The notes beneath the pieces are model-generated. The model did not search any database and was not told the DNA's origin. It saw only the letters and a list, made by a program, of their open reading frames with translations. Below, piece after piece: positions 11,989 to 62,355 of a stretch of 64,000 nucleotides of DNA; position 1 is the first letter of the stretch; each line of letters opens with the position of its first letter. This stretch comes from an uncultured Candidatus Saccharibacteria bacterium (GTDB lineage Bacteria; Patescibacteriota; Minisyncoccia; Phycocordibacterales; JACOZG01): positions 112,565-176,564 of the forward strand of contig CAYWPU010000001.1 in assembly GCA_964460805.1 (NCBI GenBank). The letters are read 5' to 3'. The position numbers were made by a program, and so were the translations under genes.

Positions 11989-12017
11989 TTGACTTTTAAA
12001 CTCGTTTGGTATATAAT
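11989..12017 (+). promoter_or_regulatory. Sigma70-type promoter: TTGACT (11989-11994), 17-nt spacer, TATAAT (12012-12017)
   Basis: Near-consensus hexamers. Sits upstream of the conserved leader (12018-12092) and the gene at 12093. Confidence 0.6.
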
Positions 12018-12092
12018 AGGGGCTGCTAGAGCGTTTCTAGCTCTTTGAGAACGAGAACCCGTTTTTTGGCTAAACTGCCAAGAGGTGCAGAA
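12018..12092 (+). promoter_or_regulatory. Conserved structured 5' leader element (copy 1): GGGGCUGCUAGAGCGUUUCUAGCUCUUUGAGAACGAGAACCCGUUUUUUGGCUAAA. Possible attenuator or small RNA.
   Basis: Roughly 90% identical to 16216-16273. Contains the hairpin AGAGC-guuucua-GCUCU, and an outer GGG...CCC pairing followed by a U6 run. Confidence 0.45.
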
Positions 12093-16187: not shown

Positions 16188-16215
16188 TTGACAAGTTCTA
16201 CCCATTTGCTATAAT
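16188..16215 (+). promoter_or_regulatory. Sigma70-type promoter (family copy): TTGACA (16188-16193), 16-nt spacer AGTTCTACCCATTTGC, extended TGcTATAAT (16210-16215)
   Basis: Identical or near-identical to the promoters at 62328-62355 and 62881-62909. Confidence 0.65.
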
Positions 16216-16299
16216 AGGGGTTGCTAGAGTGTTTCTAGCTCTTTGAGAACAAGAACCCGTTTTTTTTGGCTAAAAATATAGCCAGAAGGAGAAGAGGAA
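16216..16299 (+). promoter_or_regulatory. Conserved structured 5' leader element (copy 2)
   Basis: AGGGGTTGCTAGAGTGTTTCTAGCTCTTTGAGAACAAGAACCCGTTTTTTTTGGCTAAAAA, roughly 90% identical to 12018-12075. Followed by RBS GGAGAAGAGG and ATG 16300. Confidence 0.45.
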
Positions 16300-26865: not shown

Positions 26866-28560
26866 ATGAAAGACAAGACTTACTTCGCTGAGACTGACTT
26901 CCGTGGTAAGCGGACCAAGTTCGGCATCAAGTTTGAGGATAGAGCCCGGCACGTGTATGTGATCGGTAAGACGGGCATGGGCAAGAGTACGATGCTGGAG
27001 AACATGGCGGTGCAGGATATCCAGGATGGTCATGGCGTCGCCTTCATTGACCCGCACGGCGGCACGGCAGAAAAGTTGCTGGATTATGTGCCGGAGCATC
27101 GGATCAAAGACGTGATTTACTTTGCGCCTTTTGATCTCAATAATCCAATCTCGTTCAATGTGATGGAGGATGTGGGACCAGAGCAAAGACATTTAGTTGT
27201 CTCTGGCTTGATGAGCGCGTTTAAGAAGCTCTTTGGCGAGGAGAGCTTCTCTGACCGCATGCAGTATATTCTCCAGAACACGCTGCTGGCATTGCTAGAG
27301 TATCCGGAATCTACATTGCTTGGCGTGAACCGCATGCTCACTGATAAGGCTTATCGGAATAAAGTGGTGGCGAATGTGACGGATTCTTCGGTTAAAGCTT
27401 ACTGGACGCAGGAATTTGCCAATTACACCGAGCGCTTTGCGGCGGAAGCGACGCCAGCGATCCAGAACAAGATCGGCCAGTTCACTTCCAATCCATTGAT
27501 CAGGAATATTATCGGCCAGCCTAAATCCTCTTTTGACTTCCGCAAAGTGATGGACGAGCAGAAGATCCTGATCATTAACTTATCTAAAGGTCAGATCGGC
27601 GAGGGCAATGCCAACCTGCTTGGCTCCATGATCATTACCAAGATTTATCTCGCCGCCATGAGTCGCGCTAACTTGTCTGCCGCGCAGATCCGGCTCTTGC
27701 CAGCATTTTACTTTTTCGTAGACGAGTTCCAGTCTTTTGCCAACGAGTCTTTTGCCAATATTCTCTCAGAAGCCAGAAAATATAAACTCTCACTCACGAT
27801 TGCGCATCAGTACATAGAGCAGATGAGTGAAGAAGTGCGCGCGGCGGTCTTTGGCAACGTGGGTACTGTCGTGTCGTTTAGAGTTGGCCCTTTTGATGCG
27901 GAAGTATTTGAGAAGATCTTCAGTCCCACTTTTACTAAAGAGGATATGGTGAACTTGGGCTTTGCGCAGATTTATCTGACCATGATGATAGATGGCGTTG
28001 GTTCGCAACCCTTCTCAGCACTAACTCTGCCACCTATTAAAGAAGAAGCACGCTCGTGGAAGCCGGAGATCATTGAGAGCTCGCGACGGCTCTATGCTCG
28101 TCCCAAGGCGGCCGTTGAGGCGGATATCGCCGAGTGGGTGATCCAGAGGCCGCCTGGCGCGGCTGAGGCTCAGCCAGCGCCAGGCGGCAAGCGTCCGGCG
28201 GGGCGGCCCGAGGTGAGACGAGACGCGCCCGCCACGGCGTCAGTTGTGACAGTGAGCAAGCGCCACGTGGAGCCGGAGAAGGTTGCCAAGCCTGCACCTA
28301 GGAGGCCGGAACCAGTAGCGCCGGCGACTGTCTCGCTCAAGTCACTGGCGCAGAAGGCGGAAGGGAAAGAGAAGAGTACCGGCAAGCATAGTGCTGATCT
28401 GAAAGATGTGATCACGGCTGTGCAGAATGAATTGAAGAGTGCTTTGCCAAAGGCGGATGAGGTCAAAGTGGCAGAGACTGGAGATAAAGTATCCTCACCG
28501 TCAGGAGTAGAGAAAAAAGAGATACCGGAGGCAGAGCTGAAGAAGATGCTGGAGGTCTAG
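26866..28560 (+). CDS. Soluble TraD/VirD4-like (type IV coupling protein, DUF87/TraG-D_C-like) AAA+ ATPase with a Pro/Ala/Lys/Glu-rich disordered C-terminus
   Basis: Walker A GKTGMGKST. FIDPHGG. Walker-B-like FFVDEFQSF. RKYKLSLTIAHQYIEQMSEEVRAAVFGNVGTVVSFRVG resembles the T4CP C-terminal domain. No N-terminal TM. Confidence 0.55.
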   Translation: MKDKTYFAETDFRGKRTKFGIKFEDRARHVYVIGKTGMGKSTMLENMAVQDIQDGHGVAFIDPHGGTAEKLLDYVPEHRIKDVIYFAPFDLNNPISFNVMEDVGPEQRHLVVSGLMSAFKKLFGEESFSDRMQYILQNTLLALLEYPESTLLGVNRMLTDKAYRNKVVANVTDSSVKAYWTQEFANYTERFAAEATPAIQNKIGQFTSNPLIRNIIGQPKSSFDFRKVMDEQKILIINLSKGQIGEGNANLLGSMIITKIYLAAMSRANLSAAQIRLLPAFYFFVDEFQSFANESFANILSEARKYKLSLTIAHQYIEQMSEEVRAAVFGNVGTVVSFRVGPFDAEVFEKIFSPTFTKEDMVNLGFAQIYLTMMIDGVGSQPFSALTLPPIKEEARSWKPEIIESSRRLYARPKAAVEADIAEWVIQRPPGAAEAQPAPGGKRPAGRPEVRRDAPATASVVTVSKRHVEPEKVAKPAPRRPEPVAPATVSLKSLAQKAEGKEKSTGKHSADLKDVITAVQNELKSALPKADEVKVAETGDKVSSPSGVEKKEIPEAELKKMLEV

Positions 28561-48648: not shown

Positions 48649-49919
48649 GTCGAAGTTGACGGAAGCGGGAAGGCTTTATGGAAATAGTATTGGTAGACGA
48701 AAGTATTGAGGCCGTTACCGATGATTGAACCACAGACAGCGCCCCAGATACCCCATACTGGCAACATTAGGGCAAAAACACCGATCCGTATGAGCGGCGC
48801 GATAATACGCACAGCGTAGAGCTCTTTCTGCTTCATATGAGCGGTCATAGCGGTAGAGAAGAAGGTGCGTGGGAAGAAGAGTAGCGAGAGGGCGTAGACC
48901 TGAGAGAGCAGTAGTGCGCTTGTGTACTTGGGGAAGAAGAGGGGAAAGAGTAGGGGTGAGACTACCCAATAAGCCGCCACTGCTAACAAGATCAGCACCT
49001 CGAGGCGTAGCATTTTACCAGGTAGTGTCTGGCGGATTGTCTCGGGTGTGTCGCTGGCGCTGAGCTTGGGTAGAGCGAGGACGGACATGTTCTGGAGCAA
49101 GCTCTTGATCTGTCCTGGCGCTGAGGTTGCAATGATGTAGACAGCCAGTTGCGCCGCGCCTAAGTAGTGGAAGATCAACAACTTATCGATTTGTCCGGCT
49201 ACAGTCTTGAGTACTTCCATCAGACTGAGGTGGAAGCCGTAGCGGCCCAAAGAGGTAGTGTTGCTACTGACGGCGAGAGAGCTGGGTCGTAGACGGTAGA
49301 GAAAGAGGCTCTGCAGGATAATCTCTGGCACGAAGTAGACAACGATCAATAAGAGCAAATTGTCACTAAAGAAGAGGAACAATAAGATGCTAAGGGTGTT
49401 GAGTATCCTCACGGCGCTGGCGCTGTAGGCTAGGCGTCGGAAATCTCGCCGACCATTGAGGAGGGCCTCATACATGCCGCTCGCCGACACCAGCGGGATA
49501 CTTACCGCGCAGATCATCACACTGAGTGCGAGTGTGATATTGCCTTGTGCCAGATAATATAACGCTACGCCACCAGAGAGCACAGTGGCGAGTAGGGAAT
49601 AGGAGAGCTTTTTCTGTAATAGCCGCCAGAAGCTGGTCTCGTCACCGGAGGCGACACCCTTGATCGCGGCGGTATTGATACCGGGGAAGGTGGCCACCAT
49701 CAGCACGCTCATAATGGAGAGCACGTAACGGTAGTTGCCGTAAGTTTCAGCTGGGAGGAGATTGGCGAAGGCGATAGCGAGCAGTAATGACGAGATGGAT
49801 GCCACGGCCTGACTAAAGGTGAGCCAGACGCTGCCCTTGGCCAGATAGACCATATCAGTCTTGGTGTAGCGCTCGCTCCAGCGCAGAGTCTGGTGGGCCT
49901 TGTGTCGCCAGGTGCTCAT
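48645..49919 (-). CDS. Wzx-like oligosaccharide flippase (MOP superfamily polysaccharide biosynthesis protein)
   Basis: About 12 TM segments. N-terminal LPAETYGNYRYVLSI is typical of Wzx/PF01943. Confidence 0.6.
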   Translation of the reverse strand: MSTWRHKAHQTLRWSERYTKTDMVYLAKGSVWLTFSQAVASISSLLLAIAFANLLPAETYGNYRYVLSIMSVLMVATFPGINTAAIKGVASGDETSFWRLLQKKLSYSLLATVLSGGVALYYLAQGNITLALSVMICAVSIPLVSASGMYEALLNGRRDFRRLAYSASAVRILNTLSILLFLFFSDNLLLLIVVYFVPEIILQSLFLYRLRPSSLAVSSNTTSLGRYGFHLSLMEVLKTVAGQIDKLLIFHYLGAAQLAVYIIATSAPGQIKSLLQNMSVLALPKLSASDTPETIRQTLPGKMLRLEVLILLAVAAYWVVSPLLFPLFFPKYTSALLLSQVYALSLLFFPRTFFSTAMTAHMKQKELYAVRIIAPLIRIGVFALMLPVWGIWGAVCGSIIGNGLNTFVYQYYFHKAFPLPSTST

Positions 49920-50000
49920 TTTGTCTCCATACTACCATTTCCGCGGAGATGTGCTAAAGTGTTCTGCAATATAGTAAACACTGACAAACTCTGTAATTAC

Positions 50001-52181
50001 ATGAGCTTTCAACGCTATTTAATCTGGGCGATTGCGAGTGGCCTCTTCTTGCTTCTCCTCACCCCCCTGATCATCTCCAGTAGCCTCTTTTTCCCATATA
50101 TTACCGGCAAAGCCTTTTTCTTCCGGGTTATCGTGGAGGTCGTCTTCTGTCTCTGGCTCTTGCTGGCCTGGCGGGAGCCGGTCTATCGCCCGCAACGCTC
50201 GTGGATCATGTGGGGTGTGCTGGCACTTTTTGCCGCAAGCGCGCTGGCTACTGTATTTGGTGCTAACCCATACCGCAGCTTCTGGTCCAACTGGGAGCGC
50301 ATGGGCGGTCTGGTGAGCTATCTACACTTGCTAGCCTACTTTTTAGTAATCAGCGCCGTGTTCCGCAGTGAGCAGATATGGCGTTGGTTTTTCCGTAGTT
50401 CCATTTTTGTGAGCATGTGTGTGGCTGGTTACGGTTTAACGCAGTTCAGCGCCACGCGCGTGGATAGCACCCTTGGCAATGCCACTTACTTGGCTGTGTA
50501 CATGCTCTTCCATATTTTCCTCACAGCTTTCTTGCTGAAGCAAGACTGGAAAATAGTCTGGACAAGATATCTATATGGTCTAGTCGGCTTGCTACAGATC
50601 CTGATCTTGTATAAAACAGCCACGCGCGGTGCCATCCTAGGCTTGCTGGCGGGCGTTGGTGTGACGGCCTTGTGCTTGCTGGCTAAGCGCTGGCGCGAGC
50701 CGCGAGTGCGCAAGCTTGGCCTCGGTTTATTGCTGGTGTTGCTTGTGATTGTAGCGGGCTTCTGGAGCGTGCGGGATAGCAATTTTGTGAAAAACAGCTC
50801 CGTGCTCTCGCGCTTTGCCGATATCTCGCTACAAGAAGGCGGTAGTGCAGAGTCTCGTTTTACCATCTGGCAGATGAGCTTGCGTGGATTTGCCGAGCGG
50901 CCACTGCTCGGCTGGGGACCAGAGAACTTTGAGCTGGTTTTTGCTAAATATTTTGAGCCCAAGCTCTGGCGCCAGGAGCCCTGGTTTGATCGTTCGCACA
51001 ATATCTTCCTAGACTGGCTAATTGACGCCGGCGCGCTGGGCTTGCTCGCGTATCTCTCGCTATTTGCCTCGGCGCTCTGGTATATCTGGCGCTCGCGCGT
51101 GCGCGACTCGCTCACTCAGAGCCTGTTCACCGGCTTGCTCGCGGCTTATCTTGTTAATAATATTTTCGTCTTTGATAACCTGGTGAGCTATATTTTATTC
51201 TTCTCCCTGCTCGCTTATTTGCACGCCCAATCTTTGCCTAATCAACTTGAGCAGAGAGTGAGACACGTAGACGCGCCTGTCACTCCCGCGTTCTGGCTCA
51301 CGGGTGGCGTGCTTCTGGTTGCCCTCTGTGGTGCGGTGTATGTGGTGAACATCAAGCCGATGTTCGCGGCCTCGCGCTTGGTGCAGGTGCTTGGTCCGGT
51401 GAGTCAGGGCGTGGCGCCAGATGTGATCGTGAGCGAGCGCTTGGAGAAGTTCCGGCAGATTGCCTCTGCCCGCACTCTTGGCTCGCGCGAGGCGGCCGAG
51501 CAACTGGCCAACCAGGCCACGCAGATTGCCGCCTCTCCGGCCGTATCTGAGCCGCTCAAGCAAGAGATCAGCGCTCTGGCGATTGCCGAGATGGAGCGCG
51601 AGGCTCTCGCCGCGCCAGCGAGCGCGCGGACTAAATTAATTCTCGGCACCACTTACCTCAAGCTTGGCAAGACGCCGGAAGCTCTAGAGATTCTTGCTCA
51701 AGCTCACGAGCTGGCACCGCGCAAGCAGGCTATCATCTTCGCTCTTGCCTCGGCGCATCTCGCCAGCGGTGACGAGGAGACGGCCCTTGAGCTGGCCCAG
51801 CAAGCTTTCAATCTAGACGAAGCTTATCCAGAAGCGCGCAAGTTCTACGCGCTCGCGCTCATCCAGAGCGGCGATGTAACCACGGCGGGAGAGATCCTTG
51901 CTGGCGACCAGGCACTAGAGCTAGACGACAGATTCTTGAACGCTTATGTGGAGGCCAAGCGCTATGATCTCGTCTTCAAGCTCTGGCAAGATAAAGTGAA
52001 AAAAGAGCCAGGCAATACCCAGTTCCGGTTCTCACTTGCCGCGGCTTACCTGATGACGAACCAGCGCGCTTTGGCAATTCAGGAGTTAGAAACTGCGGCG
52101 GAGATTGACCCGCGCCTGGTGCCGCAAGTCGCGCGCCTAGTGAGCGAGATCCGCGCGGGGCGGAATCCAATTTCCCAATAA
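50001..52181 (+). CDS. O-antigen ligase-like (Wzy_C domain) polytopic membrane protein with C-terminal TPR repeats
   Basis: About 10 TM segments. Wzy_C-like loop region ...LYKTATRGAILGLLAG.... C-terminal roughly 250 aa of TPR-like helices. Confidence 0.55.
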   Translation: MSFQRYLIWAIASGLFLLLLTPLIISSSLFFPYITGKAFFFRVIVEVVFCLWLLLAWREPVYRPQRSWIMWGVLALFAASALATVFGANPYRSFWSNWERMGGLVSYLHLLAYFLVISAVFRSEQIWRWFFRSSIFVSMCVAGYGLTQFSATRVDSTLGNATYLAVYMLFHIFLTAFLLKQDWKIVWTRYLYGLVGLLQILILYKTATRGAILGLLAGVGVTALCLLAKRWREPRVRKLGLGLLLVLLVIVAGFWSVRDSNFVKNSSVLSRFADISLQEGGSAESRFTIWQMSLRGFAERPLLGWGPENFELVFAKYFEPKLWRQEPWFDRSHNIFLDWLIDAGALGLLAYLSLFASALWYIWRSRVRDSLTQSLFTGLLAAYLVNNIFVFDNLVSYILFFSLLAYLHAQSLPNQLEQRVRHVDAPVTPAFWLTGGVLLVALCGAVYVVNIKPMFAASRLVQVLGPVSQGVAPDVIVSERLEKFRQIASARTLGSREAAEQLANQATQIAASPAVSEPLKQEISALAIAEMEREALAAPASARTKLILGTTYLKLGKTPEALEILAQAHELAPRKQAIIFALASAHLASGDEETALELAQQAFNLDEAYPEARKFYALALIQSGDVTTAGEILAGDQALELDDRFLNAYVEAKRYDLVFKLWQDKVKKEPGNTQFRFSLAAAYLMTNQRALAIQELETAAEIDPRLVPQVARLVSEIRAGRNPISQ

Positions 52182-52340
52182 ACCGCCAGAATCTGGCTTA
52201 AATTAGACCCAGCTTTTTTCTTTTTCCAAATTTCTCAAATAGACTTGCTTTATTTTTTTATTTCTGCTAGACTAGTCCCCGTGGGTGCGGTTGCTGGCGC
52301 AAGCTGGCACTGCTCCGCTAAATGTAAATGTCTTGCGTAA

Positions 52341-52364
52341 GGCCCCCTCTCGTAGGGGGTTTTG
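52341..52364 (+). terminator. Hairpin CCCCCT-ctcgt-AGGGGG followed by TTTT
   Basis: 6-bp GC stem plus T-run, 160 nt downstream of the Wzy_C gene and inside the structured intergenic element. Confidence 0.45.
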
Positions 52365-52367
52365 CGT

Positions 52368-52398
52368 GTCCCGTTAGAAGCCTTGCTTCTAACGGGAC
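52368..52398. repeat. Perfect 13-bp inverted repeat GTCCCGTTAGAAG-ccttg-CTTCTAACGGGAC
   Basis: Same arms as 914-925 and 965-976 upstream of pilB. Confidence 0.6.
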
Positions 52399-52695
52399 GT
52401 GCCTGTTAAACTGCTGATAGTTTCTGCCCAGCCGTGGCTGGCGGTCGCACTCACGTAAAGACATTTAGTTTTTGGAGACAGCACCCGCTGGCCACGATTG
52501 CGCAGAAAACTTTTTAGAAAAATAAAAATTGCAGGAAATAAATTTTTACAAAATTTATTTCAAAAAAGTTATCCACATAATTAGTGAAAAATAATTGTTT
52601 CTGTTTTTGTTTTGACGGATAATTAATGCAAGAGCAACGATCACTAGTCGAGATTGTTGCGGAGGACTTTAAAAAATTTTCACGCAAAAAAACAA

Positions 52696-52785
52696 ATGAA
52701 GAAAAAGAAGAAAGCAACCAAGAAGAAGGTTGCAAAGAGAAAGACCACCAAGAAGAAGGCGACCAAGCGCAAGTCTCGCCGATAG
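52696..52785 (+). CDS. Possible 29-aa lysine-rich peptide MKKKKKATKKKVAKRKTTKKKATKRKSRR
   Basis: ATG ... TAG in frame, directly followed by the strong terminator at 52817-52858. Any RBS is weak or distant. The region also supports a 61-aa acidic ORF in another frame. Confidence 0.2.
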   Translation: MKKKKKATKKKVAKRKTTKKKATKRKSRR

Positions 52786-52816
52786 TCGTCTCTGTTCCGG
52801 TCTGTATTTAGCAAAT

Positions 52817-52858
52817 AATCCCGCTGTCTCAACCAAGAGAGGCGGGATTGTTTTTTGT
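52817..52858 (+). terminator. Rho-independent terminator AATCCCGC-(17 nt)-GCGGGATT followed by TTTTTT
   Basis: 8-bp perfect stem plus T6. Confidence 0.6.
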
Positions 52859-52884
52859 TGGTAAAAAGCGCATAATACCGCCAC

Positions 52885-55317
52885 ATGTCGCTTTTAACCA
52901 AGCTATTTGGCGATAATAGCACGCGCTATCTCAAGACGCTCCAGCCGCTAGTAGAGCGGATTAACGAGCTGGAGGCGGGCCTAGCCAGCTTGGAGACAGC
53001 AAGCTTGCCAGCTGAGACGGCAAAACTAAAAGCGCGCTTGGCCGAGGGCGAGAGCTTGGATGATATCTTGCCGGAGGCCTTTGCTCTCGCGCGCGAGGCG
53101 GCGCGGCGCACGCTGGGCCAGCGGCACTACGACGTGCAGTTGCTTGGTGGCATTGCTTTGCACCAGGGCAAAGTGGCGGAGATGAAGACGGGCGAGGGTA
53201 AGACGCTCGTCTCTACCTTGCCCGCTTATCTCAATGCGCTGGCGGGACGAGGCGTGCACTTGGTAACTGTTAACGACTATCTCTCGCGCCGCGATGCGGT
53301 GTGGATGGGTCAGATCTACGCCGCGCTGGGTCTCACCGTGGGTGTGATCAATCACGACGCTTCTTACCTCTACGATCCCGCGCATAGTGAGAAAGCACTG
53401 GACGAGAGCCGCGATGCCTCCGGCTCTTATAAAGTGTTCTACGAGTTCCTCAAGCCGTGCACGCGCCGTGAGGCTTATCTGGCCGATATTACTTACGGCA
53501 CTAATAACGAATTTGGCTTTGATTACCTGCGTGATAACTTGGCTTACGAGACCGCTCGCGTCTCGCAGATCAGCTTGCCAGATCGTCCGCGGCACCATTA
53601 TGCGATTATTGATGAAGTAGATTCTATCCTGATAGACGAAGCTAGAACTCCCTTGATTATCTCTGCCCCAGTTGCTGAAGCTGATAGCTTATATGCCCGC
53701 TTTGCGAAAATTTCTGCCGCACTCGAGCCGGAGGCTGATTATACTGTGGAAGAGAAAACACGGACGATTGCGCTGACAGAAGCAGGGATAAGCAAAGCAG
53801 AGCAGATGCTGGGCGTGAGCGATATTTATACTGAGGGAGGAGTGAAGTACGTCCATCACTTGGAGACGGCTGTGCGGGCGCGAGCATTATATGAGAAGGA
53901 TCGTGACTATGTGGTGCGCGAGGGTGAGGTGGTGATTGTGGACGAGTTCACTGGCCGGATGCAGCCTGGCCGGCGCTGGAGCGAGGGCTTGCACCAGGCG
54001 ATTGAGGCTAAAGAAGGTGTGGCAGTGAAGCAGGAATCGCGCACCATGGCGAGCATCACCTTCCAGAACTACTTTAAGCTCTATGAGAAGGTGGCGGGTA
54101 TGACAGGTACGGCTCTGACGAGCGAGGAGGAGTTCCAGCGCGTTTACGGCTTAGACACTGTTGCCTTGCCTACGCACCGCGAGAACAAGCGCCAGGACTT
54201 GAACGATCTCATCTTCCAGACAGAAAAAGGCAAATTGCAGGCAGTGGTCAAGAAAATCAGAGAATTGCATGAGTCTGGCCAGCCGGTGCTGGTGGGTACA
54301 ATCTCTATTGAGAAGAACGAGAAGTTGTCTGCTTATCTTAAGAAAGAGGGCATACCTCACCAGCTCTTGAATGCAAAGAACAACGAGCAGGAAGGTTTGA
54401 TCATCGCCGAGGCGGGCAAGCGGGGGAGCGTGGTGCTGGCTACCAATATGGCTGGTCGCGGCGTGGATATCAAACTGGGTGGGCCAGATGCAACCGAGCA
54501 AGAGCGTGAGGAGATCAGAGCGCTGGGCGGACTCTGCGTGCTGGGTACCGAGCGGCACGAGGCGCGGCGGATTGATAACCAGCTCCGCGGCCGCGCCGGC
54601 CGCCAGGGCGATCCAGGAGTAACGCAGTTCTATATTTCTCTAGAGGATGATCTATCGCGCATCTTTGAGGCCGAGAGGGTGAAGAACTTGATGGGCCGCT
54701 TTGGTATCCCGGAGGATGAGCCAATAGAGGCCAAGCTCGTCTCCCGGGTGATTGAGAGCGCGCAGACCAAGATAGAGGGCTTCCACTTTGACGCCCGCAA
54801 ACATCTCTTAGATTACGATAATGTGCTCAATCATCAGCGCGCCAGCATCTACGAGCGCCGCCGGGGATTGCTCTTTGGCGACCCGGATGCCTTGCGCGAG
54901 GCACTGGCTGGTCTTGGCGAGGAGGAAAAGCGCGACTTGAGTGAAGCGCAAGAACAAGTCTTGCGCCGGGCGATTTTGCAGATAATTGACCTGAATTGGT
55001 TGGAGCACTTAGAAGCGATGGAGCATATGCGCAGTAGTGTGGGCTTGCGCGCCTATGGTCAGCGCGATCCGCTGGTGGAATATAAGAAAGAAGGTCTAAA
55101 TATGTTCAAGTTGATGGAGGCGAATATTCTAGAAGAAGTTAAGCGTTTCCTCGCCAATTTGCCGGCTAATATTGAAGCAGTGAAGACGGAAGCCGTAGCG
55201 ATTCCCATCACCGCGTCTAGTTCTCCGGAAGCTAGTTCTATCCAACCAGCCGTGGGTCGCAATGATCCCTGCCCCTGCGGCAGTGGTAAGAAGTATAAAA
55301 AGTGCCACGGGAAATAA
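52885..55317 (+). CDS. secA: Preprotein translocase ATPase SecA
   Basis: DEAD motor motifs (MKTGEGKT, DEVDSILIDEART). C-terminal zinc motif CPCGSGKKYKKCHG. Confidence 0.95.
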   Translation: MSLLTKLFGDNSTRYLKTLQPLVERINELEAGLASLETASLPAETAKLKARLAEGESLDDILPEAFALAREAARRTLGQRHYDVQLLGGIALHQGKVAEMKTGEGKTLVSTLPAYLNALAGRGVHLVTVNDYLSRRDAVWMGQIYAALGLTVGVINHDASYLYDPAHSEKALDESRDASGSYKVFYEFLKPCTRREAYLADITYGTNNEFGFDYLRDNLAYETARVSQISLPDRPRHHYAIIDEVDSILIDEARTPLIISAPVAEADSLYARFAKISAALEPEADYTVEEKTRTIALTEAGISKAEQMLGVSDIYTEGGVKYVHHLETAVRARALYEKDRDYVVREGEVVIVDEFTGRMQPGRRWSEGLHQAIEAKEGVAVKQESRTMASITFQNYFKLYEKVAGMTGTALTSEEEFQRVYGLDTVALPTHRENKRQDLNDLIFQTEKGKLQAVVKKIRELHESGQPVLVGTISIEKNEKLSAYLKKEGIPHQLLNAKNNEQEGLIIAEAGKRGSVVLATNMAGRGVDIKLGGPDATEQEREEIRALGGLCVLGTERHEARRIDNQLRGRAGRQGDPGVTQFYISLEDDLSRIFEAERVKNLMGRFGIPEDEPIEAKLVSRVIESAQTKIEGFHFDARKHLLDYDNVLNHQRASIYERRRGLLFGDPDALREALAGLGEEEKRDLSEAQEQVLRRAILQIIDLNWLEHLEAMEHMRSSVGLRAYGQRDPLVEYKKEGLNMFKLMEANILEEVKRFLANLPANIEAVKTEAVAIPITASSSPEASSIQPAVGRNDPCPCGSGKKYKKCHGK

Positions 55318-59122: not shown

Positions 59123-60082
59123 TTGACCACCAGCTTGTCTAGCATCAAGATCAAGCAGAATGTCCCGCTTGCGCCACTTACCAGCTTTGGTTTGGGCGGC
59201 CGTGCGCGTTATTACTTGCGAGTCAGCTCGTCTCAAGAGTTTGCTCAGGCGGTGGCCTTGGCTCGGCAACTCAAGATACCTCATCTCATTTTTGCCGGCG
59301 GGAGTAATGTCGTTTTCTCCGATCAAGATTACGAGTGTTTAGTAATCCACTATCTAGACGCGAGCAAGCCGGTGCTTAGGGAAACAGGCTCTGGAGTGGT
59401 GCTGGAGGCCTCCGCAGGCCTCGCCTTGGCGAGTTTGATCAAGAGCAGTATCAACCACAGCTTGGCTGGTTTGGAGGCGCTCTCGGGCATCCCGGGGACT
59501 GTGGGGGGCGCTATTGTGGGCAATGCCGGCGCTTATGGTCAGAGCATCTCAGACAAGATTACTGAAGTAGAAATCTTTGACGGCAAAAGAGTGCGCTGGA
59601 TCAAGAGAGTGGCTTGCAAGTTTGCTTATCGTGATAGCGTCTTTAAAGATAAAAATTCGCCGGCTGGCGAGTGGTTGGTCTTGCGGGTGCGGTTTGCGCT
59701 GGAGAAAGGAGATAAGAAAAAGTTAGCGCAGAAGTCGCGGGAGATCATCAGGATCAGGAACGAGAGATATAAGCCGGGTCTCAAGTGCCCGGGGAGCTAC
59801 TTCAAAAACGTCCTGGTAAAAAATGTTTCTCAGAAAGCGTTAAGCAAAATAGACAAAGTGAAAATTATAGACGGCAAGATCCCGACTGGTTACTTGCTTG
59901 AATCAGTTGGCGCGCGAGGGATGCGTGAAGCTGATATAGAAGTGGCGAGCTTCCACGGCAATTTATTATTTAATAACGGCAAAGGCAAAACCAAAGATGT
60001 CAAAATTCTTGCGGAAAAACTAAAGAAATTAGTCTGGCGGAAATTTGGTATCAAACTTGAGGAGGAAGTGAGATATATTTGA
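59123..60082 (+). CDS. murB: UDP-N-acetylenolpyruvoylglucosamine reductase
   Basis: FAD-binding N-terminus TSFGLGGRARYY...IFAGGSNVVF and MurB C-terminal domain. Confidence 0.75.
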   Translation: MTTSLSSIKIKQNVPLAPLTSFGLGGRARYYLRVSSSQEFAQAVALARQLKIPHLIFAGGSNVVFSDQDYECLVIHYLDASKPVLRETGSGVVLEASAGLALASLIKSSINHSLAGLEALSGIPGTVGGAIVGNAGAYGQSISDKITEVEIFDGKRVRWIKRVACKFAYRDSVFKDKNSPAGEWLVLRVRFALEKGDKKKLAQKSREIIRIRNERYKPGLKCPGSYFKNVLVKNVSQKALSKIDKVKIIDGKIPTGYLLESVGARGMREADIEVASFHGNLLFNNGKGKTKDVKILAEKLKKLVWRKFGIKLEEEVRYI

Positions 60083-62327: not shown

Positions 62328-62355
62328 TGCCAACGACTTGACAATTTCTGCCCAT
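62328..62355 (+). promoter_or_regulatory. Sigma70-type promoter (family copy): TTGACA, spacer ATTTCTGCCCATTTGC, TATACT
   Basis: Shares a 26/28-nt core with the promoters at 16188 and 62881. Sits upstream of the RRM-protein gene with a roughly 130-nt leader. Confidence 0.55.

Follow-up and report, generated by a model that had tools for sequence, protein, structure and literature searches.

A compact patescibacterial locus upstream of secA that probably encodes a new small RNA and its target hairpin

Some trans-encoded small RNAs (sRNAs) bind the folded leader of an mRNA through two separate contacts, as exemplified by the kissing complexes of OxyS with fhlA and by the loop-loop pairing of RNAIII with rot. 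Pairing is also initiated at loops in antisense-RNA control of the CopA/CopT, RNAI/RNAII and hok/sok kind, and the long duplexes that result are typical RNase III substrates. In the Patescibacteria (candidate phyla radiation, CPR), bacteria with tiny genomes of which most have not been cultivated, few regulatory RNAs have to our knowledge been described. Here we analysed a 64-kb stretch of contig CAYWPU010000001.1 (the whole stretch is called the window) and, within it, an intergenic region of about 240 nucleotides (nt) upstream of secA, at positions 52262–52500. From the letters of the window alone, this region had been proposed to be a noncoding RNA (ncRNA) reminiscent of 6S RNA, or a miniature inverted-repeat transposable element (MITE). 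Comparison with related loci, designated below by L numbers, indicates that it is probably a compact locus of two conserved patescibacterial RNAs that base-pair with each other, a new sRNA, called sRNA-1, and a target hairpin, called the module. At the level of sequence, both RNAs are conserved, each has a structure whose helices covary, their mutual pairing covaries as well, and their relative position and orientation vary from locus to locus.

As in the OxyS-fhlA and RNAIII-rot systems, a short RNA, here with a putative promoter and terminator of its own, carries two seeds, one for the loop of a leader hairpin and one for the adjacent strand; pairing maintained by covariation is a further trait to be set beside them. 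The locus differs from these systems in the absence of any sequence or Rfam relationship, in its host phylum, in that the sRNA-1 gene usually adjoins its partner, which is gene-less in half of the loci, and in the position of one seed, at the extreme 5' end of sRNA-1 and partly sequestered in its own first hairpin (H1). As in CopA/CopT, RNAI/RNAII and hok/sok, pairing probably starts at the apical loop, and it can reach 20–30 base pairs (bp) over several helices. In contrast to those systems, sRNA-1 and the module are not opposite strands of one DNA, complementarity is confined to short covarying boxes, and there is no plasmid or toxin context. A link between riboregulation and peptidoglycan synthesis genes, as proposed below, is also reported for Yfr1 in Nostoc (PMC6974561) and for an Agrobacterium sRNA (PMC6234868); the organisms are unrelated and the sequences presumably so.

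The first indication of a structured RNA came from the fold of the region. On the + strand, RNAfold gave −108.5 kcal/mol for 52262–52500, compared with −81.3±4.9 kcal/mol for the mean of dinucleotide shuffles (z = −5.52), and none of 200 shuffles was as good. The − strand gave −96.3 kcal/mol (z = −5.3). Several stems need G-U pairs (UGCUGGC/GCUGGCA, for instance), and therefore the signal favours an RNA on the + strand. The features listed in the original prediction are present where it had placed them, its expectation of a fold exceeding shuffled controls was borne out, and the ncRNA proposal is supported by conserved, covarying RNA structure on the + strand. The single rod of 240 nt that it had envisaged was not recovered: the region instead comprises two RNA units, each with its own putative promoter, and a palindrome between them (coordinates in Table 1).

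The downstream unit, the module, is a long irregular hairpin. When the 240-nt region was compared by nhmmer with loci anchored on SecA, its 3' part was matched in L007, L008 and L004, and all four sequences fold into one such hairpin. The corresponding covariance model (CM), R1, found two loci outside its training set, L005 and L010, at 51–53 bits (E about 1e-12 to 1e-13, CM E-values being rough), and L011 weakly. Metagenome contigs were then scanned with a pattern that fixed ACTCAC, TTGGAG and RCACC and left the stems, the loop and all of sRNA-1 unconstrained; this yielded 80 loci (L081–L160), in which R1 gave 31 sense-strand instances. For the window module, R1 scored 84.3 bits on the + strand versus 23.7 bits on the − strand. 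In an alignment of 35 instances, 94.3% of cells were paired, and in 16 of the 22 pairs both partners had changed (141 cells). Covariation was scored at 0.53, versus at most 0.14 for controls in which the partner was slid, and none of 500 shuffles reached the observed values.

Most loci have a sigma-70-type promoter before the module (for example TTGTCA, a 17-nt spacer and TATAAT), often with an extended −10; in GC-richer loci, −10 boxes of the TGCTACGCT type were read by eye. The putative promoter in the window, P2, ends 14 nt before the module, which is the commonest distance in relatives (11–15 nt in 20 of 37 loci scanned). In 18 of 38 loci murB, an essential peptidoglycan gene, starts within about 100 nt 3' of the module, and in one more it starts 11 nt before the module end, so that the order promoter, module, murB is a conserved 5' leader arrangement in 19/38 relatives. 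It is not found in the window, where murB (59144–60079) is 6.6 kb from the module and where a search with R1 upstream of that murB found no module copy; murB has moved away from the module in this lineage. The other module loci have a terminator of their own, a small Lys/Arg-rich open reading frame (mini-ORF) and/or secA downstream. The window module may be either a stand-alone RNA, acting as partner or sponge, or the long leader of a mini-ORF and secA.

Homologous sRNA-1 units were present in 31 of the 38 loci. They share an architecture consisting of an extended −10, box a (GUGAGUGC), a variable H1, a single-stranded linker carrying box b, and a GC-rich hairpin (H2) with a U tract; the latter ends every copy, and box b is often extended by CUCC or UUCC. 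The promoter, mostly TGnTAnnnT, precedes box a by 5–9 nt in 20 of the 25 relatives with enough upstream sequence, and by 2, 12 or 14 nt in five more. In the window, H2 has the form of an intrinsic terminator, a GC-rich stem-loop (52345–52359) followed by TTTTGCGTGT, with a U tract that is short. sRNA-1 carries both promoter-like and intrinsic-terminator-like signals. RNAalifold detected no structure in a MAFFT alignment of all copies, in which the hairpins were misaligned. A second model, R2, was consequently built from a hand-drawn structure on a sub-alignment, followed by CM re-alignment. In the R2 alignment 89.5% of cells were paired, both partners had changed in 17 of 21 pairs, and covariation scored 0.437 (at most 0.145 in slid controls); the model recovered sRNA-1 in loci outside its training set. 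One R2 match, in L154 (2860–2935, − strand), was rejected as a false positive covering a terminator hairpin only. At E<0.01, R2 did not reach the sRNA-1 copies of the window and of L159, because their H1 is longer. The assignment of the window copy as a homologue rests on its alignment with L159 and on the shared architecture. L159 is a close relative that retains all of the 240-nt arrangement together with what lies downstream. Relative to the window it shows compensatory changes in H1, in H2 and in the stem that closes the module, but none in boxes a and b or in the sequences they pair with.

The evidence that the two RNAs pair comes from their joint variation. In every one of the 27 cognate pairs, box b can be matched to the apical loop of its module over at least 7 contiguous bp, and the duplexes comprise 21 different sequences, for example UAAAUGUCUU/AAGACAUUUA in the window, CAAACGAAAUGUUG/CAACAUUUCGUUUG in L156, GAUGAAAAACU/AGUUUUUCAUC in L133 and GAAUGACUG/UAGUCAUUU in L107. 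The partner of box a is GYACUCAC, in the module's inner 5' strand; 25 of 27 pairs have at least 7 bp there, and all seven sRNA-1 copies with the duplex sequence GUGAGUAC face a module with GUACUCAC. The two window helices are CGUGGGUGCGGUU/GGUCGCACUCACG (13 bp, of which 4 are G-U) and the box b helix just given (10 bp). Since pairing of a loop with a linker (kissing) is a pseudoknot for RNAcofold, duplex energies and permutation tests were used. The mean energy of the loop duplex was −9.45 kcal/mol for cognate versus −6.03 kcal/mol for non-cognate pairs (p<1e-4), and that of box b extended to GGAG was −15.5 versus −10.7 (p<1e-4); in both tests, none of 10,000 permutations reached the cognate mean. 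The UUGGAG extension usually pairs with the CUCC or UUCC of the sRNA. The complementarity of sRNA-1 to its partner is conserved and covaries, and it is independent of gene order (see below).

Part of this pairing had been noticed before. Of two outer pairs described in the original prediction, the one between CTAAATGT..CTT and AAGACATTTAG is real, and relatives have conserved it with covarying changes. The other, between CCGTGGGTGCGG and CCGCTGGCCACG, can form in this sequence, but conservation points to different partners: that of CGTGGGTGCGGTT (52280–52292) is GGTCGCACTCACG (52443–52455), and that of CCGCTGGCCACG (52485–52496) is CCGTGGCTGGCGG (52432–52444), with which it makes the closing stem of a local hairpin. 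The nested long-range complementarity exists, and is best read as the pairing of two transcripts rather than as the folding of one. Elsewhere in the window, a 14-nt identity to the module loop (AAGACATTTAGTT), complementary to box b, was seen at 27185–27198 inside an ORF of 564 amino acids (aa), and the only extra exact match to AAGACATTTA, at 27186, likewise falls in coding sequence. Both are probably due to chance.

From these data a mechanism can be proposed. sRNA-1 would first use box b to dock on the module's apical loop, and pairing would continue into UUGGAG. The 5' end of sRNA-1 (box a) could then invade the inner 5' strand of the module (GYACUCAC), so that the upper half of the module would be replaced by an intermolecular helix of about 20–30 bp. 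Where the module is the whole 5' untranslated region (UTR) of murB, such pairing may alter the stability or the translation of the mRNA, which would amount to post-transcriptional control. As a possible route, a hairpin at the very 5' end might be remodelled, or cut off by a double-strand-specific RNase.

Several observations weigh against an sRNA acting on a target hairpin. RNAcofold, applied to sRNA-1 with the module, predicted no intermolecular pairs or irrelevant ones, and did not predict the complex; this is because loop-to-linker pairing cannot be represented in that program. Plain masking of a Shine-Dalgarno sequence does not fit, because about 40 nt separate the GGAG of the module from the AUG of murB. 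Transcription from P1 (the putative sRNA-1 promoter) and P2, termination at H2 and a regulatory effect are what we infer from the sequence, the two promoters and the terminator being consensus matches. The window module is not followed directly by murB, and no clear terminator was found after it. The metagenome pattern had fixed certain letters of the module, and the conservation of those letters in L081–L160 is therefore partly a matter of ascertainment; the loci are also phylogenetically related, so that the counts do not represent independent events. Finally, the U tract of H2 in the window is short (UUUU, then GCG), and only about 50 nt of the same strand lie between the two units; read-through could thus produce one RNA pairing in cis.

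This last point leads to the alternative of one structured ncRNA of about 230 nt, transcribed from P1 through H2, with its 5' and 3' domains paired in cis and with H1 to H3 as peripheral hairpins (H3 being the palindrome between the units). Such an RNA would be in keeping with the fold of the whole region (z = −5.5) and with the 26 loci in which the units are adjacent on one strand. Moreover, the U tract of H2 is paired with an upstream A-rich strand, after which GCG also pairs, and the RNA may continue past H2. However, a canonical promoter lies directly 5' of the module in most loci, and the spacers between adjacent units, 19–237 nt long, hold unrelated palindromes. The arrangement itself is also variable: sRNA-1 and the module are divergent in L129 but convergent in L083; in L085, L135 and L097 a gene and about 1 kb separate the module from sRNA-1 upstream of it; and in L007 and L008 sRNA-1 is not adjacent to the module. 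Because sRNA-1 may be found 1 kb from the module or on the other strand, the pairing is taken to join two molecules. A single ncRNA thus appears unlikely, and two separate transcription units are favoured.

A more far-reaching possibility is that the module is an RNA-sensing leader of T-box type, with a dedicated sRNA in place of tRNA, or that the two RNAs form an obligate bipartite complex, across much of the Patescibacteria and tying murB, secA and the Wzy_C/TPR gene upstream to a locus with a DnaA box. The likeness to T-box leaders is one of logic and not of membership, in that a leader hairpin reads another RNA through two base-paired contacts. The differences are that the partner is a dedicated sRNA, that there is no T-box sequence or Rfam match, and that an expression platform is seen in few loci only. 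We regard this extension as rather unlikely; if true, it would give these bacteria, whose regulatory repertoires are minimal, a dedicated riboregulatory circuit.

It is also conceivable that the module is a cis-regulatory leader of murB that binds a ligand or a protein, like a riboswitch, and that the complementarity to sRNA-1 is secondary. In favour of this, the module forms the murB 5' UTR in 19 of 38 loci, the nucleotides of its internal loops are highly conserved (GYACUCAC, UUGGAGCUCGCACCCG), and in L008 and L093 a terminator-like hairpin separates it from murB. In contrast, all 27 of 27 pairs show covariation of box b with the variable apical loop, for which a ligand pocket would not account; about half of the modules have no murB downstream, many of them ending in their own terminator; and no Rfam riboswitch family matched the module. 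This explanation is quite improbable compared with pairing of the module with sRNA-1.

A MITE, or another inverted-repeat element acting at the DNA level, is a further alternative. The inverted repeat that had been given as 13 bp is indeed present, with an actual length of 14 bp, and is perfect (52368–52381/52385–52398). Its arms, CCCGTTAGAAG(C/T), recur at 914–926/964–976, the two sites sharing arms of 12–13 nt around spacers of 3 and 36 nt respectively, and this second copy, together with the nested inverted repeats, is what speaks for such an element. However, neither the 240-nt region nor either RNA unit had another copy in the 64-kb window by blastn and CM search, and the outer pairings, taken earlier for terminal repeats, depend partly on G-U. 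Synteny (TPR/Wzy_C gene, sRNA-1, module, murB and/or secA) is kept in distant relatives despite strongly diverged proteins, MurB in the relatives sharing the site being only 42–63% identical to that of L005, and the changes between them are compensatory and preserve RNA helices. On this evidence, in which the search for copies covered the 64-kb window, a MITE is very improbable. H3 itself belongs to neither conserved RNA and, if anything in the region behaves as a small repeated element, it is the likeliest part to do so; it could be a repetitive extragenic palindromic (REP)-like repeat or an operator. Its arms are kept in L159, on the reverse strand, with a 20-nt nested insert in the loop. 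At the same position, L084, L116, L107, L152, L088, L133 and L093 each have a different long inverted repeat, with arms of up to about 45 bp, as if palindromes specific to each genome had repeatedly inserted there, or as if an insulator hairpin were required at this place. The right arm of the 914–976 palindrome abuts the TATAAT (977–982) of a pilB/gspE-like gene, which appears to be leaderless, with its ATG at 989.

Known RNA families were searched as well. Rfam 15 gave no match in the whole window at gathering thresholds. Permissive searches (E≤10 for the region, E≤5 and E≤1 for 11 related loci) gave chance-level matches only, such as ncr1175, microRNA families and a plastid 3' UTR, and those overlapping a terminator hairpin reflect that hairpin. 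Neither sRNA-1 nor the module belongs to any Rfam 15 family. ARAGORN found no tRNA or transfer-messenger RNA (tmRNA) gene in the window, and a literature search for a murB-associated RNA motif and for sRNAs of Patescibacteria returned nothing relevant. A divergent housekeeping RNA (6S, signal recognition particle (SRP) RNA, RNase P or tmRNA), suggested by the high structure content and the intergenic location, both shared with 6S RNA, is hardly credible, given that neither 6S (RF00013) nor the other three matched at gathering thresholds in the window, or credibly at E<10 in the region or E≤1–5 in the 11 loci, that the universal motifs of such RNAs are not present, and that the fold is multibranched and separates into a pair of independent units, each of about 85 nt, not into a single rod with a central bubble.

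Table 1. Features of the RNA locus and its surroundings in the window.
Feature	Position	Strand	Remarks
Wzy_C and TPR protein gene	49893–52181		5' flank of the RNA locus
P1, putative sRNA-1 promoter	52245–52273	+	−35 TTGCTT, 17-nt spacer, extended −10 TGcTAGACT; predicted start ~52279–52281; consensus match
sRNA-1	~52280–52366	+	~85 nt, predicted from P1 to H2 and U tract
Box a, CGUGGGUGCGGUU	52280–52292	+	extreme 5' end of sRNA-1
Hairpin H1	52292–52309	+	with G-U pairs
CUCC of sRNA-1	52313–52316	+	
Box b, UAAAUGUCUU	52325–52334	+	preceded by a tandem copy, UAAAUG
GC hairpin H2 and U tract	52335–52366	+	flagged as terminator-like
H3, perfect 14-bp palindrome	52368–52398		3-nt loop; between the RNA units; right arm overlaps −35 and spacer of P2
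P2, putative module promoter	52383–52412	+	−35 TTGCTT, 18-nt spacer, extended −10 TGtTAAACT; predicted start ~52418–52420; consensus match
Module, long irregular hairpin	52424–52506	+	closing stem 52432–52444/52485–52496; R1 CM
Module box a', GGUCGCACUCACG	52443–52455		
Module box b', AAGACAUUUA	52458–52467		
Module UUGGAG	52472–52477		
Module GCACCCG	52481–52487		
DnaA box, TTATCCACA	52569–52577	+	exact consensus; upstream of the mini-ORF promoter; single copy in the window
P3, putative mini-ORF promoter	52595–52623	+	TTGTTT, 17-nt spacer, GATAAT; read from sequence
Lys-rich ORF	52696–52785	+	29 aa, encodes MKKKKKATKKKVAKRKTTKKKATKRKSRR
Intrinsic terminator	52813–52859	+	after the mini-ORF

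The window order is thus Wzy_C/TPR gene, RNA locus, Lys-rich ORF, terminator and secA. The product of the last gene (52885–55317) has SecA domains by Pfam and is at most 61% identical to the SecA of GTDB species representatives; a look-up of its exact sequence returned no record. Its nearest relatives are in metagenome-assembled genomes labelled Paceibacteria, Kaiserbacteria, Sungiibacteriota, Uhrbacteria and 'Saccharibacteria', and the window comes from a genome of the Patescibacteria. A TPR-like C-terminus of the ..EIQAGRNP type, resembling that of the window Wzy_C/TPR protein, was seen upstream of sRNA-1 or murB in L003, L009, L114, L091, L099, L118 and L145. The gene orders suggest an ancestral arrangement of TPR gene, sRNA-1, module, murB, possibly the mini-ORF, and secA.

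The Lys-codon-rich mini-ORF of the original prediction and the terminator behind it are both present. Lys/Arg-rich ORFs of 27–71 aa recur between the RNA locus and secA in L159, L007 and L133, and on the reverse strand in L083 and L142. The recurrent ORF has its own conserved promoter (the hexamers and spacing of P3, which are identical in L007) and a terminator. A Pfam scan of a 61-aa ORF (52626–52808) and of the frame 52698–52784 gave no match; the frame of the mini-ORF itself was not part of that scan. A putative secA promoter consists of a −35, TTGTTT at 52848, which overlaps the U tract of the mini-ORF terminator, a 17-nt spacer and CATAAT at 52871–52876. With a predicted start 1–2 nt before the ATG at 52885, the secA mRNA seems likely to be leaderless.

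Exact DnaA boxes are enriched near the module: 15 copies were found within 1 kb of it in 15 of 38 loci, versus 0.53 expected, usually just 5' of the promoter of the Lys/Arg-rich mini-ORF. Control of a promoter by DnaA at this site is possible. The DnaA box and an AT-rich stretch were also considered as an oriC, and this was rejected because GC skew keeps one sign across the window. Farther away, a 56-nt stretch occurs in two copies (12012–12067 and 16210–16265, 95% identity, 4.2 kb apart), each with TATAAT, then a hairpin (GCTAGAG..CTAGCTC), then a T run; its promoter type recurs at 62337 and 62870. The repeat and the related promoters may represent a shared leader or a small RNA.

Pairing of sRNA-1 with the module would provide a conserved sRNA and partner-hairpin pair in which natural compensatory mutations define the pairing to the nucleotide. 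In many lineages the partner hairpin is attached to murB, a gene next to secA. R1 and R2 offer two new covariance models for the annotation of CPR genomes. If confirmed, the pair would be a widely conserved CPR riboregulator and would give a handle on the control of envelope synthesis in these bacteria.

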